A DNA stretch of 64,000 bases from contig OZ220089.1 of NCBI GenBank assembly GCA_964291625.2, forward strand, positions 1,248,001 through 1,312,000. The letters are read 5' to 3'. The notes beneath the pieces were generated by a model. The model did not search any database. It saw only the letters and a program-made list of their open reading frames with translations, and had not been told where the DNA came from. Position numbers and translations under genes: made by a program. Below are positions 4,330 through 52,345 of this stretch, piece after piece (position 1 is the stretch's first letter; every line of letters starts with the position of its first letter). This stretch comes from Candidatus Latescibacterota bacterium (GTDB lineage Bacteria; Latescibacterota; UBA2968; UBA8231).

Positions 4330-4334
4330 ATCCC

Positions 4335-6422: not shown

Positions 6423-6424
6423 CC

Positions 6425-15811: not shown

Positions 15812-15948
15812 GGGAGCCCCGACTGCTCCTTCCTCAGGCCTGCGGTCTGCGCCTTGACATGGAACCGACGAAAGGGGACTCTGTTCTACCTTCTACCCCT
15901 CACCGAACTACCGCCTCACCGAAGCACTGTAGCACAGGAACTTCCGCC

Positions 15949-34954: not shown

Positions 34955-35004
34955 GGGAACCTCCATATGGGGCAGGCAGGGGACCTCTCTCCCTGAACTC
35001 CTAC

Positions 35005-35658
35005 TCAGGGAGTATACACGGATGAGTCCTGCCGGGATACCCGGCGGTGCCGTCTTGCAGCTCCAGCGAGGCACCCCACCAACTCCCGCCCCTCTCGGAA
35101 CAGGTCGTGGAGATGCAGGTACCGGAACAGGGAACTCCGCCCCGCCAGGTGCAGGTTCTCGAAGCTCCGGAAGTAGTCGACGAGCAGCTCCACGCGGCCG
35201 GCGAGCTCCGCCTCCAGCACGGGATAGGCGAAGGGCAGCTTGAGCACCGCGAAGCTCAGGACCTCTCCCTCCTCGATCGGCTGCACCCTCTGCAGGGCCC
35301 GCCAGGCCCGGCGGCGCAGCTCCCCGTCGGGCAGGCTCCACAGCGGGTCCTCCGGGAAGCAGGGCATCTCGAGGACGATCGCCGTCCGGCCCTCGGGGGC
35401 CATGTGCCGGCTGCGGTTCCTGGGCTCGTAGAGGCGGGTGAAGGGGAACTCCTCCCCCGGGAAGTAGAGGGAGGCGTTCGGCGTGAAGGAGGGCCGGTCC
35501 AAGGCGAAGACGCACAGCACCAGGTGCCGGTAGCGCACGGCCTCGGCCGCGGCCAGCACCTCGGGAGGCGGCGGCGGATCGAGGATCGTCGCCGAGAGCG
35601 TCAGGGGCAGGGTGTTGACCACGGTGGAGACCTCGACCTCCTCGCGGCTGTTGATCAG
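35005..35658 (-). pseudogene. 3' fragment of FAD-dependent oxidoreductase (5'-truncated by IS481 remnant)
   Basis: Near-identical to the C-terminal half of 57034-58422. Confidence 0.88.
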
Positions 35659-35986
35659 GATGCCGGCGCCGCGCCCGGAGAATCAGCTCGGCGATCACCG
35701 GTTCCAGGCGGTGGGGGGCATGGCTGCGGTCTTCAGCCTGGGCCGCCCCTGCTCGGGGTGTCGTCGAAGCCACTTGTAGCCCGTCTTCGGCTGCCGTCGT
35801 CGGCACAGCTCCGTCATCGTCAAGGGACTGGCTCGATGATCGGCAATGAATCCCTCTCCCTGCTCCACGGGTGCGGTTCCCCACCACGGCATCGACCAAC
35901 CTCCCGCTTGGGGGTCGGTCCAAGATACCGGGGCGTGTCACCCATCGACCCGGTCAGAAGTGTTACCAATCAACCCGGATTATACC
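35659..35986 (-). mobile_element. IS481-family remnant (left end plus degraded transposase N-terminus)
   Basis: MPW...EQ...FIADH...TMTELCRR...KTGYKWLRR...EDRSHAPH...ILRARRRHP. Two related TGT(C/T)ACC(C/A)ATC(G/A)ACCCGG sub-repeats at 35936-35980. Confidence 0.75.
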
Positions 35987-36049: not shown

Positions 36050-39000
36050 CTACCGGAGCATCACCATCTTCCCGACGCGGACCTGCGATCCCCCGATCAG
36101 GCGGTACAGATAGATCCCTGAGCCCGAAAAACGTCCCTGCTCGTCCCTCCCTCTCCACCGAATGGTATGCACCCCGGCCTTTAGCATCTCGCTCTCGTGG
36201 AGCTTGGCGATCATCTGTCCCGTGATGCTGTGGACCGTGAGGGTCACCGCCATCTCCTCCGGGAGGGACAGGGTGATCATGGTCTCGGCGTTGAACGGGT
36301 TGGGTGCGGCCATGACTCCGAATCCCACCGAGTCGGCCCAGTCGGCGACGGGCTTGCTGCCCGCGGATCGCTCTTCCGCGGGCACCGTGTACTCAGACAT
36401 CGAGCTTTCCCCGACGGGGTTCTTGGCTCTGAACCCATATCTGTGCGACCGGGTATTCAGGGAATTGTCGTCGGTGAACTCAGTGTGGGTCACCCAGATC
36501 GGAGCGCTCCACATAGGCCCCTGCCGCTTGTACCAGAAGTATCCAGTGATGTCCGCCCCGTTGTCCTCTGGCTCGTCCCAAGAGACGGTGACGCTGGTTG
36601 CGGAGGAGCGGCCGTGGGAGAATCCGCTTGGAGCGTCTGGTACACCCGCGGGGGTTGCGGTGTCGGTAACGTAGCCACTCGTGCCGACCGGGTTGCGAGC
36701 TCGGACCCGGAAGTGGTACAGGGACCCGTTGGTCAGCCCGGTGATGGTGACGGACGTGGAAGAGGTGTTCTCATCTGTGCTGAGCCAGGAACCTCCATCG
36801 ATCTTGTAGTTGTAGTCGTACCCCGTGATCTTGGATCCCCGGTCGTCCCCCGGAGCTTCCCATCCAAGGGTCACCTCTTCATCGCCGCGCGAGGCGTCTA
36901 CACTCCGGGGGACGGTCGGCACACCGGCGACGACGACATTGGACAGGACGCTGGCATATTGGCCTGGGCCGAAGGCGTCGGTGTAGTCTACAAACCCCTT
37001 GATTCTCTTGCCCACAGCCAGAGTCGGCGTGGAGAAGTCCAAGGAGGAGGAATTGCTTCGCTCGGACTGTGCCCGGGATGAACTCTCCGTGTCAGAAGCG
37101 TCAACGTCGTTCCATCCGAAGCTGGTCAATGACACACCATCGGGATCCGTCACCGTCAGGGTGAACCCCGTTCCGGCCTGAGGTGTGCGAGGATCAATCG
37201 TCAGGGTGCCGGGAGTGTTGACAGGCTCTATGGTGGTTGCGGATGTGCTCGCGCTGGATCCAAACCCGTCGTTGTTGTGCGCCCTGACGCTGACGTCGTA
37301 ATCCGTGTCATCGTCGAGACCGGTCAAGGTGACTGATCGGTTTGTGGTGGTATCCCTCACCCACTCGGTCTCCGAGTCCTTCTTGTAACTGTATTGGTAG
37401 TAGTCGATGGTCTCCCCGCAGTTGTCCGGGGCTTTCCATGACAACGCAATGGTGCCGCGCTCATCATCGCTGCTGTCCGCTGTAAAGCCAGGGGGCCGCT
37501 TGGGCACGTCGGAGCGGACGCCCACAGAGCGGGCTTCCGCCTCATTGCGATCAGAGTAGTTGTCTCCGTACTTCGCCGTCACACGGATCCTCTTCCCCGC
37601 CCATGTGCCATCCAAGTCCTTCGATCCAGCAAGGGTCTGACCGGAAGGCTGTGACACCGACGCGGCTTGACTGGCGCTCTCTTTCTCCCAGAAGAACCCA
37701 TACTCGAAATCATCCGGCTCGTCCTCTCCCCTCATGGTAATGCCCCCGTCCTCATCCGTAAGGATCGCGGTAACGTTACGACAGGCTTGGGGAGAGGCGG
37801 GGGAGAAACTGATGGAACCAGGGTCTGGTCCGTTCAGGACGTTGACCGTGCGTTCGATCGTGTCGGACAACTGCTCGGAGGTGACCTCGGTGATCTTGAT
37901 GTCTACATCGTATGTACTCTTGACTTCATAGTTCGGGGTGGTCCTGAACTCCAACCGACGCCGATCCGAATGCCCTTCCACGTCTGCCAGGTCGAACGAG
38001 CTTCGATCCTCCCCGAGGAGCGACCACGTGATGGCATCGCCATTGGCATCGGTGCCTCTGTAGACTCCGGCGATCACCTCGGTCGCCTCTCTCACGTCTC
38101 GCCTGGTGACCTCTGTCAGTACGGGACCCACGTTGGCCTCCGGTGGGGTCGTCGCCGACACGGAAGTCCTTGCGCCATATCCCTCGTCGTCATCGGAGCG
38201 GTTGCTGGCCCTCAACTCGAAATCATACGTCGTCTCGTGCGCCAAGCCGGTGACGGTCAAGGAGGTGGCGGAGCCGTTACGCAGGAGCTTGGTCGTCCAT
38301 GAGGACGTGCCCTGCCGACGGTATCGATACTCGTATCGGGTGAGAGCCTTCCCGCAATCATCCGCAGCCGTCCATGACAGCCGAACCCGGTTCTGTCCGG
38401 TCGTCGCCGTCAGTGCCGTCGGCTTTCTCGGCACGTTGGCCTCGATGGTGATGGATGAGCCAGCAGCCGTCTTCAACGGCCCTTGCGCGTCTTCATATTT
38501 TGCGGTCACATGGAGAGTCTTCCCAGCGTCCCGATTCTTCGGTTCGTAGACTTCCTCGACCGACACCGGAGCGGGAGCATCGCCCCCTTCCGGCGGCGAA
38601 TCTTGGATCCTCCACTGCCATCCATAGGTCTTGTCGGGCGGGGGATCGGCGAAGGAGATCCCTCCGTCCGGGTCCGTGAGAGTCGCCCTGATTCCATCGA
38701 CACAGGTCTTCGGGATGTCCGGGAAACGGATGCTCCCTGCCTCGTCCAGGTTGTTCAGATGGACAGTGACCGCCTTGGTGTCTCTGGCGTCGTGACGGTC
38801 CGAGACTCGCAGCTTCACGTTGTAGGTGGCCTTGTGCTCGAAGTCCGGGGCCGAGTCGAAGGAGAGGGTCCGGGAAACCCGCCGATCCGTATCGTCATCG
38901 TCGTCGGGGTCGGCGAGATCGAACAAGGCCGCGTCAGTGCCCGTCATCACGAGCCAGGAGACCTCGTCTCCGAGGTCTTCATCCGACCCGATGTAGGTAT

Positions 39001-42000
39001 CCAGGATTCCCGTGAATCCTTCGTCCACACGCACAGATGAATCTCCACTGATGTGGGGATCCGTGTTGCTTGGCTCCGGCGGTGAAATCGCCGCCTGCAC
39101 CACCTCGGTCTCCTTGGTCAAGGAGATCCCCGTGGAGTGCTTGTCGTCGTAGAGAGCTGTCACCCGGATCTTCTTGCCCACATCGTTGCTCCCCGGAGTG
39201 AAGGTCGGCCCATGATTCGGGTCGTCAGCCTGCCTCGCGGTCCCGTCCTCCGTGGGTGGGGTGAACACCACCCAGGTCCAGTTGACGTTGCGTACTCCGT
39301 CCTCGTCTTCCACCTCCGCGGCAATCTCCTGATCGGCTCGGGGCGGGTCTACGTTTGTCAGATTGATGGAGCCGTTTGGGGGACCGGGACGGTTGTCTGG
39401 GACCACAGGAACATCCGTAGTGGCCGAGGCGGTCTCGCCTGGGGCATGCAAGTCGGTGTACGTGACCTCGGCCCGGATCCGGTATCCGATATCCTCAACC
39501 TTGGGGGTGTAATGCATGCCTCCTCTCTTCACGGTCTTCACAAAGACCCCGGCCACGGTGACTCGTTCCCATGTCCAATCGTGATCACTGAGCGGCACAT
39601 CGGGATCCTCCAGTTCAGCGTTGATCCTGAAATTGACGCGGGGCAGCTCCGTGCCCTCGGCCAGAGACAGCGTCAAGGTGCCGTCCGTGGGATCGGTCCT
39701 GGCCGCCTCTACAGCCACCGTGACGAGCTCTGCCTCAACGCCGGTGCTGTGGTCATCGTCGTAATGAGCCGTAACCCGGATCTTGTGGCCGACATCACTC
39801 AGTCCGGGAGTGTGCGTGGCCTTGAGGGTGGCTCCCTCGGCCTCTCCGTCGTGGATCACTTCAACATCGGCGTCGTCGTCTGCATCAATCCTGTGCCATG
39901 ACCACTTCAGATTTCGGTAAGGGTCTCCTTCGGTGAGGCCGGCCGTCATCTCCGTGCTCATCCTTGGGGGCTTGGAGAAGGTAAGAGAGACCGTCCCGGT
40001 GGAATTCCGGCGATACGAAAAGCTGGCGTCCAACTTGCTGGTGGTGTGTATGCGACTGGATGCGACGGCTCGAAACTGGTAGGACTCCCAGGCCTGGCCA
40101 ACGGAAGGCGGCCCACTGCTCCATGTCAGCACCCCGCTCCTGCTGATCTTGAGATGCTGGGCTACATCCCTCTCCGTGCGATTCTCGATGGACCACTTCA
40201 CCGAAGTGACAGCGTCCCCATCGCTGTCGCTAGCAGAGTAGGTGCCGATGGTGCGATCCTCCCAGTCGCTGTAGTAGAACGGCTCGGTCGTCCCCGAAAC
40301 CGTAATGGCGATGGGGGGACCGGTCGTCCTCCGATACGTGAAGGGATCGCTGTACATGTCAGGATCCCTGACCCGGCCTTCGACCCCATAGGTTCTGCTC
40401 GGGTACAGATCCCAATCGATGAGACGCCCGAGATCTCTGAAGGCGCTATACAGGCTGGCCGGGATACTCTGGCTCCTCCACCGGCCATTGGCGAATCCCG
40501 GATTCCACACCTTCAATCCATCCGAGTCCAGATAGTAGATCCTCCACTCAATGGAGGCGATGTCCGTCTCCGGGCCAATCTTCAGGCGCACAGCGCCCTT
40601 CAGATCTGTCCATGCCTCGGCATCCGGTTCGATGGTAGGAGCTGTCGGGGCCGTCGGCTCAGGGTAATCCGTGACGGTGACCAATACATCTTGAGACCAC
40701 TTCACGAGCAGGGTCCGAGTCTCAACCGCATACAGCACCCTGACTTCGTAAATGTTGTCGCATCGGGAATCGCCAGGGGGGCGGTTGCTCACGCAATTCG
40801 ACTCTCCTTCTGAATTCCGGTCCGTGGGCTTCTCGTAGTCGGGGGCGTCATCGAACGACAGGACTCGGCTGCCACTGAGGACGAAGTCATCGGCATCCTT
40901 TCCCTCCAAACTCCACGTTCCAGTAGTGGGCGTCTGGGAGTACCTGTTGTACGTGCCGATTTGGAGAACGCTATCGTCATCCTCCCTCAGGCTCTTTGCG
41001 TTCGGCCCCGTCACCATGCCGCAGTTTTCGAAGGAGACGGTGCCGTTGTACAGTACCTTTCCGCCACTCTTGAACATGCACAGAGAGCCGGACTTGAAGG
41101 TAGCCCCGTTGACGAACTTCAAGTTGCCCTTGACGACCAGGCCTCTCCACACCGCCTCGTTGGTTGGGCTCTCAGGGCCCATGGTGGTCCCATTGAGGGT
41201 CATGGAAGACCCGTTCTGCACGAAGACCTCCACGCGGTCGGTATGACTTCCGGAGTTGCTCGCGTCCGACTTGGAGGCAACGACCCACTCGGAGCCAGGG
41301 TCCACCACCAGGGTGGCAGCCGGCCGGTCCGCATCAACGGTGATCGAGCCGTCCCCAACAGAGATGTCTCCGTTGATCTCTATCTCGCCCTTCATGGTGT
41401 GCGTACCCTCGTAGAGGGTCAGGCCATCAATCGTGGCCCGGCCACCAGCCTTCACGATCAGGCCATGACTCTCGATGCCGCCCTTGACTCGGTCTCCATC
41501 ATCATTCGTGTACTCCTCCTGGGTAGATCGGAAGGTCACACCCTGACCGATTGCCAGGCGCCCTTCATCCTCGACGACGAAGTCAGACCGGGAGTTGGTG
41601 TCAGGACTCTTGGGATTCAGAAAGTAGACGGTCGAATTGTCAGCGATCGTCAGCACCTCGTCGGCCCCGATGACCACGTCATCCCCGACGTAGATGTCCC
41701 CCGATAACTCGACGCTCGCCACCAGATCGCCACCGAGGTAATTCTTGTAGACGTTGGCTACCGCATGGCCGGACTCTTCGACTCTCACGATGTGGATGTT
41801 GCGTACCGCCAGATATGTGGGGGCGTCCTCGGTGGTGGTTGAGCCGATGTTCCTCTTCAGGAAATGCGAGGCATCCGATGCCCAGTCGGGAGTTCTCCGG
41901 TGAGCTGGATCCCTCAGAGAGAGGTTCGTCGGCAGACTGCCGGGGTTGTCTTGGTAGTACTTCATGGTGGCAATGGTCGTTCTCAGTCCGTTCGGATTGC

Positions 42001-43324
42001 TCGTGTGCATGTCCGCTCCGAAGGGATCCGAGATCAAGTCCAGCCATGGGAACAGCGTGGAGTTGGTGACCTGTATGGACGTAGCCCCACCGGACGTCTG
42101 GGTCAGGGCGTTGGCGATGGACCGTTGGTCTGCCGGGATCAACCTTCTATGCCGGTTGATGTGGGGGTCGCTGCCATTGTAGTCCTCCTTCCACAGGAGG
42201 AGGCCCGGGGGTTCATCCCACTTGAACCATTGGATGTACTTGCCGAAGGAAGTGACAGGGCGGAACTCAAGATACAGCGTTGTGGCCCCGTGACCATAGA
42301 TGTAGTGGTAGTTTCCGGGGGAAGGCAGGATGATCTGGCTTTGGGTCGAGGAGGTGATCTCGGTATGGGTGCCCCACCCAAGTTCCTTCATGTAGAACGG
42401 GTTGAACGGATTCGGGCAGGATTGGGACTGGTACATGTAGGCCAAGGTAGCGTCAGACGGGCTGCCGCCTTGCACCACGGGGCCGTCGGCGCCGGACTGC
42501 ATGGAGCACCAGAACATGAAGTTGGCGCTCTGGAGTTGGTCAATGGGGTCGCTGGTATACGGGTTGGTGTCTTGCGATGTTCCCAGTCCATGATTCAGGC
42601 CAAGAAGGTGTCCCACTTCGTGGACGTTAGTGCCGATACCCGCAAAGCGGCCAGCATCATCATCACTCCCAAGGCGTTCCCCCATCATGTATTGGGCATA
42701 GGACCGAAGATCCGCACGAGGATGAAGGCCCGTATCCACAGAGGTATATCCTGCATAGATGAAACCCAGTTTGTTGGCGGATCTAATGGCTGCTGTAGAC
42801 TCGTCGTTGGGGAGGTCGTAGTCTTCATGGGTGTCTGGGTACCAAGACGCCGTAGACATGGCAGCTGTCAGCGCAGCGTATGCGTCGTCATACAGTTCGG
42901 TGTGGGATTCATCTTCATAGTGGCTCTTGGTGTTTTGGAGTTCGAGCCACACCGGATATCCATCCTCATCTGAAGGATTCAACACGTCGACTTCCACAGT
43001 GAATCTGTTGCCGGCCAAATAGTGGAAGTAGTCCTTGACGCTGCCGTACAGACTTGGCAGTTCCTCGTCGTCGGCTACCGTATGGTCATCCGTCGGACCA
43101 AATCCCTCGCTGCCCTCGCCGAAGAGACGCTCGAAGTCTTCCATCGTGTAGGCGTCATTCCCAGGTTCAGCAGGATTTCCCGACCAACCATGTGGAGGTG
43201 TGTCACTGAACCGGACCAGCGCGATATAGAGATTGGTGTTGGCATCGAAGTAGTCCGACTGTGCATCAGGCGGGATGGGCAAGAGACAGGAGACGACGGC
43301 GAAGAACCTTGAGACTCGGATCAT
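36050..43324 (-). CDS. Giant secreted M6-like (immune inhibitor A-like) zinc metalloprotease with cadherin-like, Ig-like and FN3 repeats and FlgD/T9SS-like tail
   Basis: Signal peptide. ALVRFSD, GSVKDYF, HEVGHLLGLNH, Met-turn WCSMQSG, KELGW. Cadherin PDYE/PDFE/PNYE motifs, several FN3 domains, tail APNPFNAET...SGIYLYRL...GKMVMLR. Confidence 0.88.
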   Translation of the reverse strand: MIRVSRFFAVVSCLLPIPPDAQSDYFDANTNLYIALVRFSDTPPHGWSGNPAEPGNDAYTMEDFERLFGEGSEGFGPTDDHTVADDEELPSLYGSVKDYFHYLAGNRFTVEVDVLNPSDEDGYPVWLELQNTKSHYEDESHTELYDDAYAALTAAMSTASWYPDTHEDYDLPNDESTAAIRSANKLGFIYAGYTSVDTGLHPRADLRSYAQYMMGERLGSDDDAGRFAGIGTNVHEVGHLLGLNHGLGTSQDTNPYTSDPIDQLQSANFMFWCSMQSGADGPVVQGGSPSDATLAYMYQSQSCPNPFNPFYMKELGWGTHTEITSSTQSQIILPSPGNYHYIYGHGATTLYLEFRPVTSFGKYIQWFKWDEPPGLLLWKEDYNGSDPHINRHRRLIPADQRSIANALTQTSGGATSIQVTNSTLFPWLDLISDPFGADMHTSNPNGLRTTIATMKYYQDNPGSLPTNLSLRDPAHRRTPDWASDASHFLKRNIGSTTTEDAPTYLAVRNIHIVRVEESGHAVANVYKNYLGGDLVASVELSGDIYVGDDVVIGADEVLTIADNSTVYFLNPKSPDTNSRSDFVVEDEGRLAIGQGVTFRSTQEEYTNDDGDRVKGGIESHGLIVKAGGRATIDGLTLYEGTHTMKGEIEINGDISVGDGSITVDADRPAATLVVDPGSEWVVASKSDASNSGSHTDRVEVFVQNGSSMTLNGTTMGPESPTNEAVWRGLVVKGNLKFVNGATFKSGSLCMFKSGGKVLYNGTVSFENCGMVTGPNAKSLREDDDSVLQIGTYNRYSQTPTTGTWSLEGKDADDFVLSGSRVLSFDDAPDYEKPTDRNSEGESNCVSNRPPGDSRCDNIYEVRVLYAVETRTLLVKWSQDVLVTVTDYPEPTAPTAPTIEPDAEAWTDLKGAVRLKIGPETDIASIEWRIYYLDSDGLKVWNPGFANGRWRSQSIPASLYSAFRDLGRLIDWDLYPSRTYGVEGRVRDPDMYSDPFTYRRTTGPPIAITVSGTTEPFYYSDWEDRTIGTYSASDSDGDAVTSVKWSIENRTERDVAQHLKISRSGVLTWSSGPPSVGQAWESYQFRAVASSRIHTTSKLDASFSYRRNSTGTVSLTFSKPPRMSTEMTAGLTEGDPYRNLKWSWHRIDADDDADVEVIHDGEAEGATLKATHTPGLSDVGHKIRVTAHYDDDHSTGVEAELVTVAVEAARTDPTDGTLTLSLAEGTELPRVNFRINAELEDPDVPLSDHDWTWERVTVAGVFVKTVKRGGMHYTPKVEDIGYRIRAEVTYTDLHAPGETASATTDVPVVPDNRPGPPNGSINLTNVDPPRADQEIAAEVEDEDGVRNVNWTWVVFTPPTEDGTARQADDPNHGPTFTPGSNDVGKKIRVTALYDDKHSTGISLTKETEVVQAAISPPEPSNTDPHISGDSSVRVDEGFTGILDTYIGSDEDLGDEVSWLVMTGTDAALFDLADPDDDDDTDRRVSRTLSFDSAPDFEHKATYNVKLRVSDRHDARDTKAVTVHLNNLDEAGSIRFPDIPKTCVDGIRATLTDPDGGISFADPPPDKTYGWQWRIQDSPPEGGDAPAPVSVEEVYEPKNRDAGKTLHVTAKYEDAQGPLKTAAGSSITIEANVPRKPTALTATTGQNRVRLSWTAADDCGKALTRYEYRYRRQGTSSWTTKLLRNGSATSLTVTGLAHETTYDFELRASNRSDDDEGYGARTSVSATTPPEANVGPVLTEVTRRDVREATEVIAGVYRGTDANGDAITWSLLGEDRSSFDLADVEGHSDRRRLEFRTTPNYEVKSTYDVDIKITEVTSEQLSDTIERTVNVLNGPDPGSISFSPASPQACRNVTAILTDEDGGITMRGEDEPDDFEYGFFWEKESASQAASVSQPSGQTLAGSKDLDGTWAGKRIRVTAKYGDNYSDRNEAEARSVGVRSDVPKRPPGFTADSSDDERGTIALSWKAPDNCGETIDYYQYSYKKDSETEWVRDTTTNRSVTLTGLDDDTDYDVSVRAHNNDGFGSSASTSATTIEPVNTPGTLTIDPRTPQAGTGFTLTVTDPDGVSLTSFGWNDVDASDTESSSRAQSERSNSSSLDFSTPTLAVGKRIKGFVDYTDAFGPGQYASVLSNVVVAGVPTVPRSVDASRGDEEVTLGWEAPGDDRGSKITGYDYNYKIDGGSWLSTDENTSSTSVTITGLTNGSLYHFRVRARNPVGTSGYVTDTATPAGVPDAPSGFSHGRSSATSVTVSWDEPEDNGADITGYFWYKRQGPMWSAPIWVTHTEFTDDNSLNTRSHRYGFRAKNPVGESSMSEYTVPAEERSAGSKPVADWADSVGFGVMAAPNPFNAETMITLSLPEEMAVTLTVHSITGQMIAKLHESEMLKAGVHTIRWRGRDEQGRFSGSGIYLYRLIGGSQVRVGKMVMLR

Positions 43325-44151
43325 CGGTAGGTGCCTCCTTTTACCTGACCCCATGAAGATTTGTTGGTGGCACCTGTGCCGTGGTCGTGCCGCATCAGGC
43401 CTTCGTTGTTATTGGCTTCATTGCGACTTATCTCTCTATACGCATCTCCGGAGTCGGAAGATCTTGATTCACTTCCTCTTCCGTCCCTACTAGTGGGGGG
43501 CTCAAGCAACCGTGCTTCTTCAGAACTAAGGTTGTTGATGAACGACGAGTAATCAGATTCGAGGTCAACGGTCTCGAGAACAGTCCACATGCCATATCCG
43601 CGGAGGAAGGATACATAGCGAGAGTACTCGGGATTGGATATATCCTGCATTGAGGATCCATAGAAGCGGAAAGAGGATTTGTACACTGCCTTCGTAGAAA
43701 GCCAATCCGTGCGAGTCACTTCCGTGTCGCCCTCGGCGTTCGATGGATCGACCGCATATGTTTCCTTCACGCCTTCATCTACTACCGATATCTCCTCAAA
43801 CCTGAATAGCGGATACTCCGAGGTACCGTCATATACCATGAGGGAGTCCCCGTCCCACCGGACCTTCCTGCCAAAGAGGGAGTGAGGGGGAGCAGGGTTC
43901 GGATCCGGGTAGAAGTCGTTGAAGACGTAGTACGTCTTTCCCTCAATCACTTGGGTGCTCGTGATGCGAAGGGTCACAGTTCGGTTTTCTCGGACTGCTT
44001 CCGATGCTGCTCGATGGTCGAGATTCTCATGGTATGAGTATCTGTACTTCCATGAGTTGCCGACGTTCAGAGGCAAGTAGTCCGAGAGATCGGAGTACGC
44101 GGGAGCCGCGACGGCGCATGCGGTGAGCACTGCCAGGACAAGGTGAGTCAT
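43321..44151 (-). CDS. Secreted LPLNVGNSW protein, paralog 1
   Basis: Signal peptide, DYLPLNVGNSW, C-term SSWGQVKGGTYR; ATGA overlap with the protease. Confidence 0.8.
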   Translation of the reverse strand: MTHLVLAVLTACAVAAPAYSDLSDYLPLNVGNSWKYRYSYHENLDHRAASEAVRENRTVTLRITSTQVIEGKTYYVFNDFYPDPNPAPPHSLFGRKVRWDGDSLMVYDGTSEYPLFRFEEISVVDEGVKETYAVDPSNAEGDTEVTRTDWLSTKAVYKSSFRFYGSSMQDISNPEYSRYVSFLRGYGMWTVLETVDLESDYSSFINNLSSEEARLLEPPTSRDGRGSESRSSDSGDAYREISRNEANNNEGLMRHDHGTGATNKSSWGQVKGGTYR

Positions 44152-44200
44152 GGTTGGTCTCCTTCCAATGGGATGAGTCTGCACAGCGGGATATCGGGAT

Positions 44201-45561
44201 GTAACCGTTCAGTCCCCTACGGTTGCGTCCACATGTTGAAAAGTCGCTGTTCTGATTTGGCCTTTGTGGGTATCTTGGGACCGGTTGTTGGCACAGCGTC
44301 CTCCTCCGGGCAAAGCCGTGGAGAGTCCCCCTCAGATTTCGGTGTCCGACCGCGATGGCAGCGCACGCCGCGGGCCGTGCAGGAGTTGGTGGTCCGCTTG
44401 GGGGAGCGGGTGGCGCACCTGGAGCAGGTCGTGGAGCAACAGGCCGCCCGCCTCTCGGCCCTGGAGCAGGAACTGGCCCGCCGCCAGGGCCGAGGCCGCC
44501 GCGGCGCCCAGGCCTCGGCCTCCTCGGACCCCAGCGACCGCCCCCGCCGGCGGCGATCCTCGGGACGTTCGCCGGGCGGCCAGCCGGGGCACGAAGGCCA
44601 GGGCCGATCGTTGATGCCGGCCGAGCGCGTGGATCAGTGGATCCCGGTCAAGCCCCGCGCCTGCCACCGATGCGGGCAGGGGCTCACGGGCGAGGTCCCC
44701 CATCCGCGGCGTCACCAGCAGGTCGTAATCCCGCCGGTGCGAGCCGAGGTCCTCGAGTATCAGTTGCACACGCTGCGTTGTCCGGCCTGCGACGGGCTGA
44801 CCGAAGCCGACGGGCCCGCGGGGGTGTCCCGGCGCACCTTCGGGCCCAGCGTGCAGGCCTGGGTCAGCCTGTTGGCCGGCGCGTATCGCTTGAGTCATCG
44901 CAACATCGTGGCCCTGTTGGCCGACGCCTTTGGCGTCGAGCTGTCGGTGGGCACGGTCAGCTCGTTGCAGCAAGAGGTGTCGGCGGCGCTGGCCGCGCCG
45001 GTGCAAGAAGCCGGCGCCTACGTTCGCCAACAGCCCCGAGTCAACATGGACGAGACGGGCTGGCGGCAGCGCCGCGCCCGGGCCTGGTTGTGGACCGCGG
45101 TGACAGAGGGCGTCTCGGTCTTCGCCATTCGCCCCAGCCGCGGCCGGGAGGTGGTCGAGGAGTTGCTCGGCGCCGACAGCCCGACGGTGGTCGGCTCGGA
45201 TCGCTACTCGGCCTACGGGCATCGGCCGCCGACGCGCCGGCAAGTGTGCTGGGCCCACCTGCGACGCACCTTCGAGGACTTCTCGGCCCGCGCCGGCCCG
45301 GCCGCCGACGTCGGCCAGCAGTTGCTGGAATCCACCGATCAGATGTTTGCCGGGTGGCATCGAGTGCGCGACGGCACCCTGCAACGCTCCAGCTTCCAGG
45401 TCTATGTCAGCACTCTGCGTGGGCGCGTTCGTCTGGCCTTGTGGTTTGGGCAGCAGTTCGCCGATGCCTCGACCGCGGCCACCTGCGCCAACCTCCTCGA
45501 CTTGGAGCCGGCGCTGTGGACCTTCGCCCGCCGGGAAGGCGTGGAGCCGACGAACAACGAG
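44201..45561 (+). mobile_element. IS66-family (single-ORF ISBst12-like) element, frameshifted and 3'-truncated
   Basis: Left end GTAACCGTTCAG. GGQPGHEG, CxxC zinc fingers, MDETGW, SDRYSAY, QVCWAHL, EPTNNE, then an abrupt end. 1-bp shift near 44356. Confidence 0.9.
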
Positions 45562-45657
45562 GTTGGTGTTAGCGGCGTAGGTCTCATTCAACTGGGCACC
45601 CGCGGGAATACACCAAAGTGCGATACTGGCGACAAGGAAACCTGGCCATCGACTCAC
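45562..45657 (-). pseudogene. N-terminal stub of M6 protease paralog 2
   Basis: MSRWPGFLVASIALWCIPAGAQLNETYAANTNL matches DANTNLY of the intact protease; GTGA overlap with paralog 2. Confidence 0.75.
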
Positions 45658-46493
45658 CGGTAGGCTCCTCTCTCCTTAATGAGGCCCCACGAAGAGGAGG
45701 AAGTTCCTGTCGTGTGGTTGTGCAACATCAAGCCTTCTGTTCCTGCGTCATACCTGCGACCGTAGTCTATTTCCAGGTAAGCGTCCTCCTCATCAGAAGG
45801 CCCCGACGAGTGAGATGTGTCCTCCTCCTGTTCAGACGAGGGGTATCGAAGACGCGCTGCCTCCGGGTACAAGGAGTGAGTAAACGATTCATAGTCGTTC
45901 CCACTGTACTCAACCCACTCTCCGGATATGGCCATTCCGAATCCGCGAAGAAAGGTGACATGGCGCGTGTATTCAGGATTGTGTATGTCCCTAAAGGACG
46001 AACCAAGAAACCAGAAGACGTTGGTATGGAATCCCGTAGGCCCACTAAGCCGGGCATGTCGGTTCACTGACGTGTCGTCATCGACTGACGGATCAAGAGA
46101 GTACGTCTCCCAAACCGATTGTTCTGGTACCGATGCCTCCGTGAATCTGTATAGCGGGTACTCGGAGGTGCCGGCGTGCACCATGAGGGAGTCACCTTGC
46201 CAGCGAACCTTCTTTCCGAATAGCGTGTGAGCAGGAGCGGGGCGGGTCCCTGACATTTCGTTAAAGACAAAGTATGTCTTCCCGTCGATTTCCCGCGTAC
46301 GGGAGATGCCGAGAGTCACGGTCTGGACTTCATGGACTGCCTCTGATGCGCTTCGGCTGCCGAGTTTTTCGTAGTAGAGATGCGTATACGTCCACCGGTT
46401 GCCGACATTCAGCGGCAAGAAGTCGGACAGGTCCGAGAGCACGGGAGCCATGGTGGTCCCTACGATCAGCAACGCAAAGATGATGCGAGCCAT
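45654..46493 (-). CDS. Secreted LPLNVGNRW protein, paralog 2
   Basis: DFLPLNVGNRW, HTLFGKKVRW, FLRGFGM, SSWGLIKERGAYR. Confidence 0.8.
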   Translation of the reverse strand: MARIIFALLIVGTTMAPVLSDLSDFLPLNVGNRWTYTHLYYEKLGSRSASEAVHEVQTVTLGISRTREIDGKTYFVFNEMSGTRPAPAHTLFGKKVRWQGDSLMVHAGTSEYPLYRFTEASVPEQSVWETYSLDPSVDDDTSVNRHARLSGPTGFHTNVFWFLGSSFRDIHNPEYTRHVTFLRGFGMAISGEWVEYSGNDYESFTHSLYPEAARLRYPSSEQEEDTSHSSGPSDEEDAYLEIDYGRRYDAGTEGLMLHNHTTGTSSSSWGLIKERGAYR

Positions 46494-46605
46494 GGTTGGT
46501 CTCCTTCCAATGGCACGAGTGTGCAGGACGGGATGTCGGGGGTATCGGCTCAGTAGGCTCACTTCGGATTCAGGCCCACCACAGATCACACAGAGCCCTG
46601 CTCCT
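46490..46605 (-). pseudogene. Degenerate 3' tail of leishmanolysin-like peptidase paralog 2
   Basis: Shares CTGTGGTGGGCCT..ATCCGAAG..AGCCTAC...CCATTGGAAGGAGACCAACCATG with 48219-48335. Confidence 0.75.
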
Positions 46606-46642
46606 GGAATCATCGATGAGGTTCCCTTTCCTTTTTTCCGGG

Positions 46643-47112
46643 GTAGAGTCGGGATGTGGCGCGGTAGTGTAGGCCCGGCCTATCTGTTTCCAGCCCTTTC
46701 GTCCGCCGGTGCCTCAATAGCCGGACGCTGCCCCGTTTCCACACCCCGCTCATCGAACCGGACGTGCGGATTGCCCGCATCCGGCTCTCGGACGAGATCA
46801 TGCCTTCGCCCACGGAAAACCGGTCGTGCGCGGTACAAGGCGGGTGAGCCCACAGTCGTGCCAGAGACGCTCGTCCGAGAATCGCACGTGGTTTCCGGTC
46901 CTCACCTTGTGCTTCCGACACAGCCACTGGCGCAACCGTCGGGTCCCGTGCCGGTCCACGGCGGCATAGGCCGGGCTGACCTGACCCAGAATGAAGTAGT
47001 TCGTCCACCCGGCCAAGAGCCGGTTGAGGCGGCCTACGAGCATCTCCGGGGACAGCCATCCGGACCTCCGCGCGGTCAGCTCCCTGAGCCGGCGGCAGAG
47101 GCTTTGGACGCT
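46643..47112 (-). mobile_element. Group II intron 3' remnant (maturase domain X, domains V and VI)
   Basis: LNRLLAGWTNYF...RLRQWLCRKHK...PWAKA stop. DV GAGCCGGATGCGGGCAATCCGCACGTCCGGTTC (46787-46755). 3' end CGACTCTAC. Confidence 0.92.
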
Positions 47113-47397
47113 CGTACCGTACAGATTCGGCAGTTCCTCGTCGTCGGCGACCGTATGATCATCTGTCGGCCCAAAGCCCTCCGTACCCTCTCCAAAGAGC
47201 CGCTCGAAGTCCTCCATCGTGTAGGCATCGTCTCCGGCCTCGGCAGGAGTGCCGGACCATCCGTGAGGCGATGATCCAGCGAAGTCGATCAGTGCGATGT
47301 AAAGGTTGGTGTTGGCCGCGTAGGTTCGGTCCAACTGTGAACTGGCAGAGGTGCAAGCAGACAAGACGAGGAGGGAGACGGCCGCGAAGCGGATCAT
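47113..47397 (-). pseudogene. N-terminal fragment of M6 protease paralog 3, fused in frame to the intron maturase remnant
   Basis: ANTNLYIAL...AYTMEDFERLFGEG.EGFGPTDDHTVADDEELP.LYG is shared with the intact protease. Confidence 0.85.
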
Positions 47398-48222
47398 CAG
47401 TTCATCTCCCTTTCCTTTATCCGGCCCCAGGAAGACGAGGACGTATCTGTGGTGTGTTCGTGCAACATCAACCCCTCACCGTCGGGCGTCATAGTATTCG
47501 ATCTCCCTGTAGGTGCCCGACTCGGAAGACCCGGATGAAGATCTCGACTCTTCATCCTCATGGGAGGAAGGCTCAAGCAACCGGGCCGCCTTAGGTTCCA
47601 GTATATTGATGAACGACGAGTAGTCATCCCCTGGGTCAACGAACTCTCCAGACAGGGCCATGCCGTATCCGCGAAGGAATTTTACATACCGGCGGTATTC
47701 GGGATTCTCTACGTCCATCATGGATGAACCGTAGAATCGGAAGGTGACATGGTAAGTGCCATTGTAGCCGGAGAGCCAATCGCTGCGGGCCACTTCTGTG
47801 TCGCCTTCGGCCTTCAATGGATCAACGGAGTACCTTTCCTCGATCCATTCATCTACTTCGGAGATCTCCGCAAACCTGAACAGCGGATAGTCAGAGGTGC
47901 CGTCATGCACCATGAGGGAGTCCCCCTCCCACCGTACTTTCTTGCCGAACAAGGTGTGCGGAGGAGCGTCACGCGTTCCTGGGAAGTCGGTGAAGACGTA
48001 GTAGGTTTCTCCGTCGATGACCTGCGTACGGGAGATCCGAAGGGTGACGGGTTGGGATTCCTGCACTGCGTCCGTTGGCGCTCGGCGGTTGAGGTTTTCA
48101 TAGTACCCATGGGAGTACGTCCATGAGTTGCCGACGTTCAGAGGCAAGTAGTCCGAGAGATCGGAGTACGCGGGAGCCGCGACGGCGCATGCGGTGAGCA
48201 CTGCCAGGATAAGGTGAGTCAT
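47397..48222 (-). CDS. Secreted LPLNVGNSW protein, paralog 3 (frameshift near 47485 detaches the SSWGRIK tail)
   Basis: DYLPLNVGNSW...REIEYYDAR in one frame; GEGLMLHEH...SSWGRIKEREMN in another. Confidence 0.75.
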
Positions 48223-49463
48223 GGTTGGTCTCCTTCCAATGGTATGAGTCTGCACAGCGGGATATCGAACTGGAGAGGCGCGGTAGGCTTGCTTCGGATG
48301 TAGGCCCACCACAGGGTATAGGGCTCTGCTTGTGAGTAGTCCACCTCGTACCCGATGTCCTCCAAGGCGCCGAGGCTGACAACGCTGATCTTCGTCTTGC
48401 GCCCATAGTTGGCCGAGGACATGACCTCAGGTCCGAAGACGTCGGATCTCCAGTGTCGGCTCGTTGGGCCTTGCAAGGGCACCTTCTTGCCGGGGTAGGG
48501 ACCTCCCCCTACTTCATCGAAACGCTTGATCGCCTCGGGGCCGGTGAAGTGCGGATCGTCGTCCATCACAGAGAGTCTTCGGAACTTGCGGCCGTAGGAG
48601 ACACCGATCACATGGCCCATCTCGTGCAGAAAACACCCGAGACAGCCATTCGCTTCGGTCCTCCCAGGTCTCCTTGTTCCTCGATACGCTCAGGGCGTAG
48701 GTGCTGATCAGTATCTTTCCCACCAGCGGGAAGTCATCCGGTCTGTACTTGGTGTGCCCGCCGCTCCCCAGGCCTTGATTTGTCTGTACGGGACACTCTC
48801 CACAATGACGACGATATCGTCTACGACGCCGTCCAGACGAACGCCATCCAGGACGAGGGGGTCTCCCGACAAGTCGAAATCAGGGAGGTCGCTTGTCACC
48901 ATCTTCTCCCACCTGGCGGTATCCCTTCGGAAGAGTTCGATCTCCTCTTCCGTGAACCCATGGCCCTCCTTGAAGATCAACTCGATCTGAAACCGCTCCT
49001 TGGCGTAGTCGATGCGCTCCCCGATCCGGTAGGGATTGTGCTCCCGTACTCCGGCGACGTAGAGGTATTCCCCGAGGTGCCGGAGATCCACCCAGTCGGT
49101 GTCTCCGTCCCGGTCGATGTCGAGGATGTCCATGTCGTAGTAACTGGCCATGAAGTCGTATCGCGTCAGGTAGTGCCACAGGACCGTCAGGTCCCATGAG
49201 GTGACCCGGCCGTTCCGGGTCACGTCCCCGAGCAGGATCTCCTCCTCGTCGTCCTGAGCCGCCTTGGGGGCGGGCTCCGGCGCGAATTGCTCCGCCGGCA
49301 GGACGATCCCCCGCTGCGCGAACCAGGCCACCAGGGCGGCGTAGGAGGAAGCCCTGTCATCTGGCTCCGTCGGCTGGGCGGGAGGATCCGTGCAGGAGGA
49401 GGAGAGGAGAGTCATCGCGAGGAGAAGGACGGACCGGGTCCGGGAGAGCACGGAGCGCACCAT
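48219..49463 (-). pseudogene. Lipoprotein with dockerin-like EF-hand pair and leishmanolysin-like (M8-related) zinc peptidase; two compensating indels
   Basis: Lipobox-like SSSC; GDVTRNGRVTSWDL / DIDRDGDTDWVDL; FQIELIF...ARWEKMVTSDLPD; LHEMGHVIG; HFTGPEA; HWRSDVFGPEVMS; SLGALEDIGYEVD. Indels near 48755 and 48630. Confidence 0.78.
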
Positions 49464-49945
49464 CGAGCGGGCTGTAGATCGCCTGGGGGCGAGCCAGGGC
49501 CCCATGGTCATGCCCCTGACCGATCCTCCCGAGGCTGAGGTGGTGCGCAGACCGTCCCGCGATCTCGAACGCCGTTGGGACGAGGTCAGGCCGTCGTAGG
49601 AGCGGTGGTGTGACTGGGGCCGGGGGGTGCCTGGCTCTTTTCTGGACGCCAAGGTTGGCTCTCTTCCGTTGTTGCTGTGGCCTGGTGGCTCGGTCGCGAG
49701 CGCGAACTCGGGACCAGATCTGGCGTTCACCCCCCTCGTACTACTGGGCAGGACGGCCATGCCGGGGGATCCGCGCCACCGGGTTCAGGACCTCACTTTC
49801 CAGCGATCCCGTGTGTTGCTAATATACCCTCTGGTTCGTGACCCGTGGGTGACATCTGGGGAATTCTTTGCGACTTCTTCGTGACTCCCCGCCGGTGGAT
49901 CCGATCGGTTTCCGCGACTGAGCGCCAAGCCAGGGAGCACCCGAC

Positions 49946-52345
49946 TTGAAGAGAGCCGATCCGTGCTATCAGGAGTTGGAGGCTCTGCAGGAGCGCCTGT
50001 CCCGCCTGAGCCAGGCCAGCCTGCGCCTCAACGAGAGCCTCGACTTCAACACCGTCTTGCAGGAGATCCTGGACTCGGCCCGGTCCCTTGCCGGAGCCCG
50101 TTACGGGGTGGTGACGCTGTTCGACGATTCGGGTGCTTTGGAGGACTCTCTGTCGTCCGGGTTGACCCCTGAGGAGGCGGAGCAACTCTGGAACCTGCCC
50201 GACGGGATGGGGTTCTTCGAGTACCTGGGCAGCATCAGGGCGCCCCTGCGGGTTCGGGACCTGCCCGGCCATCTCCGGTCGAGGGGCCTGCCGGAGCTCC
50301 GTCCCCCTGTAGAAGTGGGTTCCCTCGTCTCCTTTCTTGCGGCTCCGGTTCTCCACGGAGAGGAGCGGGTCGGGGGCCTGTTCCTGGCGGGGAAGGAAGG
50401 GGCCGAGGAGTTCACCCGGGAGGACGAGGCAATCCTTGTCCTGTGCGCCTCGCAGGCCGCCCTGGTCATCTCCAACGCCCGCCGACGAAGGGACGAACGG
50501 CGGGCCCGGGCCGACCTGGAGGCCCTGATCGACACCTGCCCGATCGGCGTGGTGGTCTTCGACGCGAGGACGGGATCCCTGATTTCCTTCAACCGGGAGG
50601 CGAGCCGGATCGTCGACGGCCTGCGCAAGCCGGACCAGCCGCCGGAGCAATTGCTGCGGAGCCTGACCTTCCGGCGCGGCGACGGGCGGGAGATTTCCCT
50701 GGAAGAGGTCCCCCTCGCGGCGGCGCTGAACACCGGGGAGACCGTTCGAGCCGAGCAGATCGTCATGCAAGTGCCCGACGGGCGGTCGGTCACCACGTTG
50801 ATCAACGCCACGCCCATCCCTGCGAAGGAGGGAGGCGTCGAGTCCTATGTCGTGACCCTTCAGGACCTGACTCCACTGAAGGATCTCGAGCGACTGCAGG
50901 CCGAGTTCCTGAGCATGGTCAGCCACGATCTGCGGGTGCCGCTGACCTCGATCAGAGGTTCGGCGACCGCCCTGCTGGACGCCCCCGGCGACCTGGAACC
51001 GGCGGTGATGGAACAGTTCCACCGGATCATCGTCGAGCAGTCGGACCGAATGCTCGAATTGATCGGCGCCCTGCTCGATGTGACGCGCATCCGGGCCGGT
51101 ACGCTGCCGATAGTGCCCGAGCCTGTCGAGATCGCCGGCTTGGTGGACCAGGCCCGGAACACTTTCCTGGGCGGAGGCGGGAGAGAGACTCTCGACCTCG
51201 ACCTGGAGCCAGATCTCCCCCTGGTGATGGCGGACCGGCGGCGCATCGTTCAGGTCATCGGCAACCTGCTGTCCAACGCGGCCCGGCACTCGCCGGAGTC
51301 GTCGGCCATCCGGGTGACCGCCGCGAGGGAGGATGTCCACGTCGCCGTCGCCGTCGCCGACGAGGGCCGCGGCATCGAGGCCGAGCGGTTGCCGAACCTG
51401 TTCGGGAAGTTCGCCCTGACCGAGGGAGGGGAGGGGGCCCGGGAGATCGGAGGATCGGGTCTCGGCCTGGCCATCTGCCAAGGGATCGTCGAGGCCCACG
51501 GAGGCCGCATCCGGGCCGAGAGCGGAGGGCCCGGCCTGGGAGCGCGATTCACCTTCACGATCCCGGTGGTCGAGGCCGCCGGTAGAGACGCCGGGCCGCC
51601 CTCCACAACGCCCTCGCGACAGGAGGAGAGAGGGGAAGATCGCATCCTCGTCGTCGACGACGACCCACAAGCGCTCACCTACGTCAGGCAAGTGCTCTCC
51701 GAGGCCGGATTCAAGCCGATCGTGACCGCCGACCCGAGTCAGGCGATGGTCCTCACCAAGGAGAGCCGGCCCCACCTGGTCCTGCTCGACCTGGTATGGC
51801 CCGATACCGATGGCATCGAGCTGATGACGGACCTCCTCGGTGTCGCCGACGTGCCCGTCATCTTCCTGTCGGGCTACGGCAGGGATCAGGTCATCGCGCG
51901 GGCCTTCGAGAAGGGAGCCGCCGATTACGTGGCCAAGCCCTTCTCGTCGACGGAGCTGGTGGCCAGGGTCCGGTCGGCCCTGCGCAGGTCGCGTACCGGA
52001 ACCTGGGCTGAACCCGGCGAACCGTATGTCCTGGGCGAGCTGACCGTCGACTACGGCGAACGCCGCGTTACCCTGGCCGAACGTACGCTGGAGCTGACCC
52101 CAGCCGAGTACGGCCTGCTCCGCGAGCTGTCGGTCCACGCCGGACGGACGGTCACCTACGACCGGCTGTTGCGAAGGCTGGGGGGCGGCTCGAACCCCTC
52201 CGGCGATCTGCGCAGAATCCGCACCGTCGCCAAGAGGCTCCGCCGCAAGCTCAACGACGCTGCGGACAACCCCACCTACCTCTTTACCCAGCGGGGCGTC
52301 GGCTACCGGTTGCCGAAGGGACAGCAACCTGAGGAGGCAGTTTGA
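49946..52345 (+). CDS. Cytoplasmic hybrid regulator GAF-PAS-HisKA-HATPase-REC-OmpR wHTH
   Basis: SHDLRVPL, NLLSNA, DEGRGI, GSGLGLAIC, VVDDDP, LLDL, KPFS, LTPAEY...LRRKL...RGVGY; no TM helix. Confidence 0.92.
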   Translation: MKRADPCYQELEALQERLSRLSQASLRLNESLDFNTVLQEILDSARSLAGARYGVVTLFDDSGALEDSLSSGLTPEEAEQLWNLPDGMGFFEYLGSIRAPLRVRDLPGHLRSRGLPELRPPVEVGSLVSFLAAPVLHGEERVGGLFLAGKEGAEEFTREDEAILVLCASQAALVISNARRRRDERRARADLEALIDTCPIGVVVFDARTGSLISFNREASRIVDGLRKPDQPPEQLLRSLTFRRGDGREISLEEVPLAAALNTGETVRAEQIVMQVPDGRSVTTLINATPIPAKEGGVESYVVTLQDLTPLKDLERLQAEFLSMVSHDLRVPLTSIRGSATALLDAPGDLEPAVMEQFHRIIVEQSDRMLELIGALLDVTRIRAGTLPIVPEPVEIAGLVDQARNTFLGGGGRETLDLDLEPDLPLVMADRRRIVQVIGNLLSNAARHSPESSAIRVTAAREDVHVAVAVADEGRGIEAERLPNLFGKFALTEGGEGAREIGGSGLGLAICQGIVEAHGGRIRAESGGPGLGARFTFTIPVVEAAGRDAGPPSTTPSRQEERGEDRILVVDDDPQALTYVRQVLSEAGFKPIVTADPSQAMVLTKESRPHLVLLDLVWPDTDGIELMTDLLGVADVPVIFLSGYGRDQVIARAFEKGAADYVAKPFSSTELVARVRSALRRSRTGTWAEPGEPYVLGELTVDYGERRVTLAERTLELTPAEYGLLRELSVHAGRTVTYDRLLRRLGGGSNPSGDLRRIRTVAKRLRRKLNDAADNPTYLFTQRGVGYRLPKGQQPEEAV

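Follow-up and report, generated by a model that had tools for sequence, protein, structure and literature searches.

The window analysed here is a 64,000-nucleotide stretch of DNA from a Candidatus Latescibacterota bacterium (assembly GCA_964291625.2, contig OZ220089.1, positions 1,248,001 to 1,312,000), and its minus strand carries, between positions 36050 and 49463, a threefold repeat of genes that we call A (M8-like lipoprotein peptidase), B (small secreted protein of an uncharacterised family) and C (giant secreted protease-adhesin). A preliminary description of the window interpreted A-B-C as a three-gene surface proteolysis system. We found that the conserved unit is the B-C bicistron, not A-B-C: in this genome and in other Latescibacterota, the stop codon of B commonly overlaps the start codon of C, and C was never found without B in the 168 genomes searched. 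On the basis of this arrangement we suggest, with confidence that is evenly balanced, that B is a secreted cognate partner of a type IX-secreted protease, acting as a latency factor or inhibitor in the manner of the potempins of Tannerella forsythia. In minus-strand gene order, the array consists of the following features (window positions).

48219-49463, minus strand: A3, gene for a leishmanolysin-like (M8-like) lipoprotein peptidase that has an HEMGH motif as well as a dockerin-like repeat; two single-base frame changes
47397-48222, minus strand: B3, a B gene carrying one inserted base near 47490
47113-47397, minus strand: C3 stub, 95 codons from the 5' end of a C gene, free of stops and frame changes
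~46620-47112, minus strand: group II intron remnant, GIIM maturase domain and RNA domains V-VI; truncated at its 5' side
~46491-46640, minus strand: A2 tail, a degenerate A 3' end with one stop and one frame change; own stop lost
45654-46493, minus strand: B2, an intact B gene of 279 amino acids; tag ...SSSWGLIKERGAYR
45564-45657, minus strand: C2 stub, 31 codons from the 5' end of a C gene, encoding the signal peptide and first strand; GTG start overlaps the B2 stop
44201-45562, plus strand: IS66-family remnant; DDE_Tnp_IS66 (99.9 bits) and zf-IS66
~44148-44200 (53 nucleotides), minus strand: A1 tail, all that is left of an A gene, namely its last codons (…DIPLCRLIPLEGDQP, stop); overlaps the B1 start
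43321-44151, minus strand: B1, gene for an intact secreted protein of 276 amino acids from the uncharacterised family; tag ending ...SSWGQVKGGTYR; stop overlaps the C1 start
36050-43324, minus strand: C1, gene for an intact giant secreted protease-adhesin, 2424 amino acids from the ATG that overlaps the B1 stop

Conservation of the B-C pair

We read the junctions of the array base by base. The overlap between the stop codon of B and the start codon of C is ATGA at B1/C1, GTGA at B2/C2 and TGATG at B3/C3, and the A3/B3 and A1-tail/B1 junctions are both ATGA. The threefold A-B-C order on the minus strand, with its stubs and tails, and the overlaps at these five junctions are as the preliminary description had given them. 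Its statement that the 3' end of A leads into every B gene holds clearly for B3 and B1, which are preceded by the same A C-terminus (...DIPLCRLIPLEGDQP), whereas B2 is preceded by a diverged and degenerate copy. At the protein level, B1 is 66% identical to B3 and 53% identical to B2, and a DNA alignment of the three units extends over ~1.2 kb at 40-85% identity, barring one near-identical tract. The repeat of the units is real and beyond chance, and B1-C1 is the sole intact B-C pair in the array.

The genome (5.9 Mb, two contigs, referred to as contig C1 and contig C2 and distinct from the genes C1 and C2) contains 14 copies of B. Nine of the 14 lie directly upstream of a C-like gene or stub: three in the window, one each at 0.71, 1.57 and 3.06 Mb, two at 3.63 Mb and one on contig C2. 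A-like genes, on the other hand, adjoin none of the 11 other B copies of the genome. The comparison was extended to 41 foreign B loci, almost all of them from genomes with a Latescibacterota label, which together contained 56 B matches. A C-like match was found on the strand of B, beyond at least one B copy, at 24 of these foreign loci, and A-like genes were found at 0 of the 41. The A-B-C synteny for which the preliminary description had proposed a search across genomes is accordingly absent from the other B loci compared, and it is the B-C pairing that is kept.

For 22 of the 56 foreign B matches the C start lay between -4 and +18 nucleotides from the B stop, and these comprised 16 with a 4-nucleotide overlap and three with a 1-nucleotide overlap. 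A GGAG-type run no more than 22 nucleotides upstream of the C start, that is, within the last codons of B, was present at 21 of the 22 foreign junctions and at all three junctions in the window, compared with a chance expectation of about one in five by a rough estimate. This coupling (4-nucleotide overlap and internal ribosome-binding site) is kept across pairs whose proteins are only 30-40% identical. The earlier proposal of a co-translated and co-exported system is therefore borne out for B and C, a coupled pair in which overlap and ribosome-binding site are conserved, but not for A, which is not a conserved member.

For the phylum as a whole, we scanned 168 Latescibacterota genomes, scoring the best eight C candidates in each, so that weak C copies may have been missed. 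B was found in 33 genomes (29 of the 75 in the family of this genome) and C in 16, all 16 of which also contained B; C was never found without B. At some loci that lack a C-like match, genes of other kinds occur behind B, namely S8 subtilases with a type IX domain (loci L017 and L046), an M6-domain protein scoring 90.8 bits (L035) and a leucine-rich-repeat protein (L010). No paper describing such a pair was among those listed in a literature search on type IX secretion and peptidases in Latescibacter.

One further stretch of the genome (contig C1:3053826-3068206) carries three consecutive pairs of a small gene and an HExxH-protease gene. Among the small genes, the one in the middle is clearly a B; its two neighbours at this 3.06-Mb site end in …FGxxKEW…, are doubtfully B-like (hhalign probability ~46%) and were left out of the B counts.

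Protein architecture and the SWGxIK tag

C1 comprises a signal peptide, an N-terminal HExxHxxGxxH metalloprotease domain, long repeat and fibronectin-III regions (fn3, E = 1.8e-34; at least three domains) and a type IX secretion C-terminal domain. The zinc motif is HEVGHLLGLNH, and H235, E236, H239 and H245 are invariant in seven sequences. The catalytic domain starts directly after the signal peptide, with no visible prodomain. Against TIGR03296 (M6 domain, immune inhibitor A type), C1 scored 31.2 bits (E = 1.9e-7, model positions 28-250) and its relatives 28-90.8 bits, below the curated cut-off of 110.8; by the NCBI rule, C is thus a distant relative rather than a member of peptidase family M6. 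It shares an HExxH domain with that family, but differs from it in score (31 versus 110.8 bits), in its HExxHxxGxxH motif and in its PDB sequence matches, which are weak and confined to metzincins. As in known type IX cargo, C1 has a type A sorting domain (TIGR04183), which scored 25 and 31.1 bits in two scans, above the cut-off of 23. In the genome as a whole, there are two PorU genes above cut-off and ~100 type A sorting domains. C1 has no KLIKK ending, family-profile scans detected no toxin domain in it, and a BLASTP self-comparison listed no internal repeats.

The family matches of A3 were limited to Dockerin_1 (24.2 bits), with no peptidase family match. For an intact A paralogue (L069), Peptidase_M8 (PF01457) matched with 27.8 bits (cut-off 21), over profile positions 160-241 only.

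B proteins carry a Sec signal peptide and are ~250-280 residues long. Among 54 B homologues, the signal peptide does not end in a conserved cysteine, and hence there is no conserved lipobox. The family groups into 58 clusters at 90% identity, none of them with a name other than "hypothetical", and is covered by 318 representatives at 50% identity; its longer members contain WD40 or YWTD propellers or an extra domain. In a Pfam search of the 54 members at E ≤ 10, no family was matched by more than one member, and the ESM Atlas feature matches of one homologue (P0047) were unnamed clusters only, at 0.88 or less. In profile comparisons, B resembled neither C1 nor an M6-type partner, indicating that B is not a detached piece of C. 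A propensity count on the B alignment assigned 83 residues to E and 25 to H out of 276, and, crude as this method is, it gives a weak hint that the fold is probably mostly beta.

The SWGxxK motif, taken in the preliminary description as the defining mark of B, is instead a general C-terminal tag on unrelated exported proteins. Its form is T.V....[ST]WGx[IV]K followed by 2-10 residues and the stop codon; in the window it lies at 43330-43365 (B1) and 45665-45700 (B2). In stop-to-stop frames of at least 100 codons over the genome, the pattern [ST]WG.[IVLM]K occurred 55 times, in 53 cases no more than 12 residues before the stop. The tagged proteins have signal peptides and are otherwise unrelated in domain content; Cache and CBM9-like domains, PD40 propellers and leucine-rich repeats all occur among them, and many match no family. 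Using a 22-position profile of the tag over the 168 genomes, we found many copies in all 75 other genomes of the same family and also in several other families of the phylum. The tag was near-absent from families f2 (2/31) and f4 (2/22), where the matches were single and weak. All tag-rich families have full-length PorU, whereas the PorU matches listed for f2 and f4 were partial and below cut-off; families f10 and f14, in turn, are PorU-rich with few or no tags. No published description of the motif was found under any of its string forms.

Within the B family, the strict tag ends 109 of 141 homologues of at least 200 amino acids. In three cases (P0061, P0080 and L025), the tag is missing and a type IX C-terminal domain follows the B domain in its place. 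For example, in L025 the frame at 6001-7161 (same place as L084) encodes a B domain with a type IX ending, and the two endings look interchangeable on one domain. A tail of the form …SYWDxxFPD… replaces the tag in two B copies of the genome (contig C2:1106501-1107256 and contig C1:1567906-1568868) and in foreign protein P0012; in the two genome copies, a protease gene follows ~80-90 nucleotides downstream, with no overlap. For tagged genes outside the B family, type IX cargo genes lie mostly kilobases away, with one exception at 32 nucleotides. No tagged gene adjoins either PorU gene in this genome, the nearest being ~94 and ~59 kb away.

Possible functions of B

These observations led us to a model in which B accompanies and restrains the protease encoded behind it. 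C is exported in two stages, the first through Sec and the second, by way of its C-terminal domain, through the type IX secretion system. B is likewise exported and is translated in step with C, through the stop/start overlap and the ribosome-binding site in its last codons, and would then bind the protease domain of its own C, keeping the protease latent or off the envelope proteins of the cell until release. Because the catalytic domain of C follows immediately on the signal peptide, any latency would need another source, and a partner acting in trans is plausible. From the gene arrangement and its conservation we infer that B may bind and inhibit C, and the tag may be the anchoring or export device that would determine the destination of B.

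Several points weigh against this assignment. B is roughly double a potempin in size and lacks a conserved lipobox, and it matched no known inhibitor, chaperone or other family in Pfam, NCBIfam or PDB sequences (the best PDB match, E = 0.12, is at chance level). No fused B-C protein was found in a weak search among longer proteins. A C-like match was lacking at 5 of the 14 B copies in this genome and at 17 of the 41 foreign loci, and 17 of the 33 B-holding genomes had no C at E ≤ 1e-20 among their best eight candidates. B is thus not tied to C alone. It would also be unusual for one family to guard both metallo- and serine proteases; however, one potempin fold serves both metallo- and serine peptidases (PMC9890683), and the S8 partners of B are therefore not contrary to a guardian. 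Finally, the history of the array given below is reconstructed from three copies, and a segmental duplication, with selection or gene conversion acting on the stub, may account for it instead.

We tentatively consider a second role, possible but somewhat unlikely, in which B leaves the cell together with large type IX cargo and, as an adaptor, anchor or substrate-binding subunit, holds or aims this cargo on the cell surface. The export tag of B itself, and the type IX domain that takes its place in a few relatives, suggest that B is probably outside the periplasm. In addition, the family precedes not only metalloproteases but also S8 subtilases and a leucine-rich-repeat protein, and the propellers or extra domain of the longer relatives are often present in binding proteins. 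However, the partners found are mostly proteases, and the strict 4-nucleotide coupling, together with the observation that C never occurs without B, fits a stoichiometric guardian at least as well as an adaptor.

It is also conceivable, although quite unlikely, that B and C are merely operon-mates, joined by shared regulation or horizontal transfer with no physical interplay. The G+C contents of B1-B3 (53-56%) and C1 (60%) differ from that of the genome (69.5%), and mobile-element remains flank this and other B loci, as expected if the pair simply travels together. However, both the overlap and the internal ribosome-binding site have been kept at 30-40% protein identity, and the presence of B wherever C occurs in the 168 genomes is more than hitch-hiking would keep.

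History of the array and relation to known systems

The preliminary description further proposed that the extra, divergent B genes are retained by a three-gene A-B-C surface proteolysis system in the manner of orphan immunity genes. In polymorphic toxin loci such as those of Rhs and CdiA, orphan toxin-tip and immunity modules pile up by the full-length gene. The array is comparable in that partner genes and stubs lie beside one full-length gene and that partners outnumber large genes: B exceeds C in this genome (14 copies versus 8 matches, the best eight C candidates having been scored), in G159 (14 versus 4) and in G157 (9 versus 1). The ATGA overlaps of A and B in units 3 and 1 are real, an A tail precedes each B, and the two deletions described below spared the B genes while removing nearly everything between them. 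Moreover, arrays of B with N-terminal C stubs (~105 to 340 codons) recur in two other genomes (L011 and L014/L021). Nevertheless, we regard this proposal as very unlikely. A-like genes adjoin none of the other 11 B copies of the genome and were found at none of the 41 foreign loci, B3 and A3 are frameshifted, so that one orphan partner is itself damaged, and the stubs are N-terminal pieces of haphazard length (31 to ~340 codons) rather than complete variable cassettes. C has no toxin domain, and B lies upstream, the reverse of the toxin-immunity order. Of the proposed likeness, the excess of B over C stands in several genomes, but the N-terminal stubs, the upstream position of B and the lack of a toxin domain do not agree with a polymorphic toxin locus with orphan immunity genes.

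In another Latescibacterota genome, represented by L014 (G118:C11:681119-693709), there are four tandem B-C units, all with 4-nucleotide overlaps at their junctions; one C is cut to 183 codons and another is interrupted by an ISL3 transposase.

The array is in decay and does not consist of three retained modules. A3, which the preliminary description gave as one gene from 49463 to 48219, contains two single-base frame changes (a base missing near 48770 and an extra T in a T run near 48640), so that three frames are needed to read it. In B3, an additional C near 47490 ends the annotated open reading frame 26 codons early; its tag (SSSSWGRIKEREMN, SWGRIK ending) and its TGATG overlap with C3 are in a frame other than that in which the B3 open reading frame starts. 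The 7.3 kb of C1 form an intact open frame, compared with three single-base changes in the 2.1 kb of A3 and B3, and we therefore attribute these changes to real decay and not to sequencing noise. A chimeric open reading frame of 199 codons (46798-47397, minus strand) joins the first 95 codons of C3 in frame with the maturase domain of the intron remnant.

The C3 stub is 73% identical to C1 over 91 aligned codons, with a nonsynonymous rate (dN) of 0.228, a synonymous rate (dS) of 1.53 and a dN/dS of 0.149; dN/dS for the pairs of B genes was 0.24-0.33. This signal of purifying selection indicates that C3 remained functional over most of the period following the divergence of the units, and that its truncation is recent. 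In the tree, B2 falls outside the group of B1, B3 and three other-contig proteins from the metagenome (supports 90/84 and 96/96), which places the duplication before the split from those relatives. In the simplest course of events, the array would have originated as an old tandem series of full A-B-C units that diverged as working genes. Two deletions, each running from the 5' part of C into a mobile element seated in the 3' part of the next A gene, would then have removed most of C3 and A2 and most of C2 and A1, with frameshifts arising afterwards in the now useless A3 and in B3. Both deletions left the B genes intact, a sparing that may reflect either chance or selection.

Both mobile elements between the units are remnants. 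The preliminary description noted an IS66 element and an intron remnant, and both are present, but the IS66 copy is truncated as well: the DDE_Tnp_IS66 match covers profile positions 4-259 of 284, the C-terminal end is cut off and the frame enters the C2 stub, which rules out a complete insertion sequence. The limits of this segment (44201 and 45562) coincide with the ends of likeness to relatives in run X5. The group II intron is represented by the GIIM domain (58.4 bits, in the open reading frame 47397-46798) and by RF00029 at 46789-46711 (41.2 bits, gathering score 40). No reverse-transcriptase domain and no 5' RNA domains were detected in it, and a complete intron is ruled out, as only the maturase domain and domains V-VI remain. 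Each remnant is single copy in the genome. A3, with a G+C content of 61%, is below the genome value like the B and C genes, compared with 70.6% for the IS66 remnant, which in this respect resembles the genome, and the low G+C content of the array suggests acquisition from outside.

Units 3 and 1 share a tract of ~140 nucleotides (48270-48130 versus 44200-44060) at 97-100% identity, which takes in the 3' end of A, the A1 tail included, and the signal-peptide region of B, whereas outside it these units differ by 15-45%. We take this tract as a sign of recent gene conversion between the two units.

To examine the assembly, we used contigs produced by a second assembler from run X8, probably the source sample, in which 98% of the sampled words are present. 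Together the contigs span 43000-44078, 44142-46671, 46905-48149 and 48213-49800 with zero differences or gaps at an even depth of ~16, and reproduce all novel junctions as well as all three frame changes (two in A3, one in B3). A stretch of 123 nucleotides common to units 1 and 3 (44049-44171), corresponding to their near-identical tract, has double depth in X8 and is unbridged, so that for the order of the units we depend on the long assembly. This unbridged stretch would allow an alternative path of one A-B-C locus and a circle, but an assembly artefact of a repeated region, the misassembly that the preliminary description had named as a risk, is extremely improbable, since the novel junctions are all identical in the second-assembler contigs at a depth of ~16, the units are only 53-66% identical and hence not collapsed copies, and the genome is in two contigs.

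In runs X1, X2 and X5, only small parts of the stretch are represented. A 211-letter contig of run X1, aligned to 48604-48810 and spanning both A3 frame changes, has six differing letters and two gaps, and the relative in that run may have an intact A gene. Another X1 contig matches B1 with 17 differences in 620 letters and stops at 44190, just before the IS66 remnant.

Divergent to the array lies a candidate regulator of the locus.

49946-52345, plus strand: hybrid sensor kinase/response regulator, GAF-PAS-HisKA-HATPase-REC-Trans_reg_C, with a DNA-binding output
contig C1:3619412-3621799, contig C1:708628-710949, contig C1:3806781-3808999, contig C1:3092353-3094701 and contig C2:963000-965354: other copies of this sensor-regulator

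The six copies in the genome are 55-62% identical, and three of the six are divergently placed beside B-C loci at a distance of 0.7-2.5 kb. As a conserved neighbour of B, the gene was found at only 1 of the 41 foreign loci, and a scan for promoters and terminators gave counts no higher than those of shuffled sequences. The copy at 3.81 Mb lies ~330 nucleotides from an A-like peptidase gene, and the copy on contig C2 has a cluster of tagged leucine-rich-repeat genes at a distance of 2-9 kb. The long frame that follows C1 directly downstream (34406-35941, minus strand) contains a Uma2-type endonuclease domain. Elsewhere in the window, there are genes for a DNA methylase (14782-16917, plus strand) and for an FG-GAP protein with a type IX-type tail (3423-6419, plus strand).

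The B-C pair is a protease with a genetically coupled partner, an arrangement of a known kind, built here from an unannotated protein family and an undescribed, putative sorting tag. Other operons of a protease and its cognate inhibitor are those of staphopain and staphostatin, of serralysin and its periplasmic inhibitor, and of the Bacteroides fragilis C10 proteases, which are accompanied by staphostatin-like genes (PMC2873492). In these operons a small protein that shields the producing cell is co-transcribed with the protease, and the B. fragilis pairs also move on mobile elements. These operons differ from B-C in their protease classes, in the position of the inhibitor gene, which is often downstream, and in their cytoplasmic or periplasmic inhibitors, which are not known to carry an export tag.

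The closest parallel, which was overlooked when the preliminary description stated that no such system had been described, is the set of potempin and KLIKK-peptidase pairs of T. forsythia, whose gene grammar is the same (PMC9890683). The potempin genes end in a stop that overlaps or lies no more than 5 bp from the start of type IX-secreted peptidase genes, which belong to five families; potempins are co-transcribed with the KLIKK peptidases, are located on the outer membrane and inhibit the linked peptidase, sparing the surface proteins of the cell itself. The two systems share a gene for a small exported protein immediately upstream of a type IX-secreted peptidase gene, an upstream stop that overlaps or shortly precedes the peptidase start such that the two products are made together, and a single scheme for peptidases of different catalytic classes. 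Both also have several pairs per genome, 'orphan' small genes, and a signal-peptide region unusually conserved between paralogues, here the 97-100% identical tract of B1 and B3. However, potempins have 98-132 residues (B, ~250) and an N-terminal lipid anchor in place of which B carries the C-terminal SWGxIK tag. They are 4-14% identical among themselves, whereas B is one sequence family, without sequence likeness to any solved structure. The KLIKK peptidases are zymogens, in contrast to the C proteases with no visible prodomain, and inhibition, which has been demonstrated for potempins, is for B suggested by this parallel.

The decayed array records the turnover of such a locus, from duplication through long divergence under selection to loss by deletions ending in mobile elements. 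B genes ending in the tag and B genes ending in a type IX domain provide a natural test case for the function of the widespread SWGxIK tag. A testable function can also be assigned to an unannotated family of at least 318 sequence clusters, which could supply new protease-binding scaffolds. A more far-reaching extension, which we consider quite doubtful, is that the secreted B proteins are protease guardians of a new class, with the SWGxIK tag responsible for their sorting, that the surplus B genes and C stubs form an immunity-like repertoire against the type IX proteases of neighbours, that the giant proteases act in contact-dependent competition, that B-C cassettes move horizontally between Latescibacterota, and that the tag is a second, undescribed type IX address label. 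If B does guard or steer its protease, the potempin principle would be recurrent in the wider Fibrobacterota-Chlorobiota-Bacteroidota group rather than the oddity of one oral pathogen, and the same principle would have been built from an unrelated protein family with a different anchoring device.

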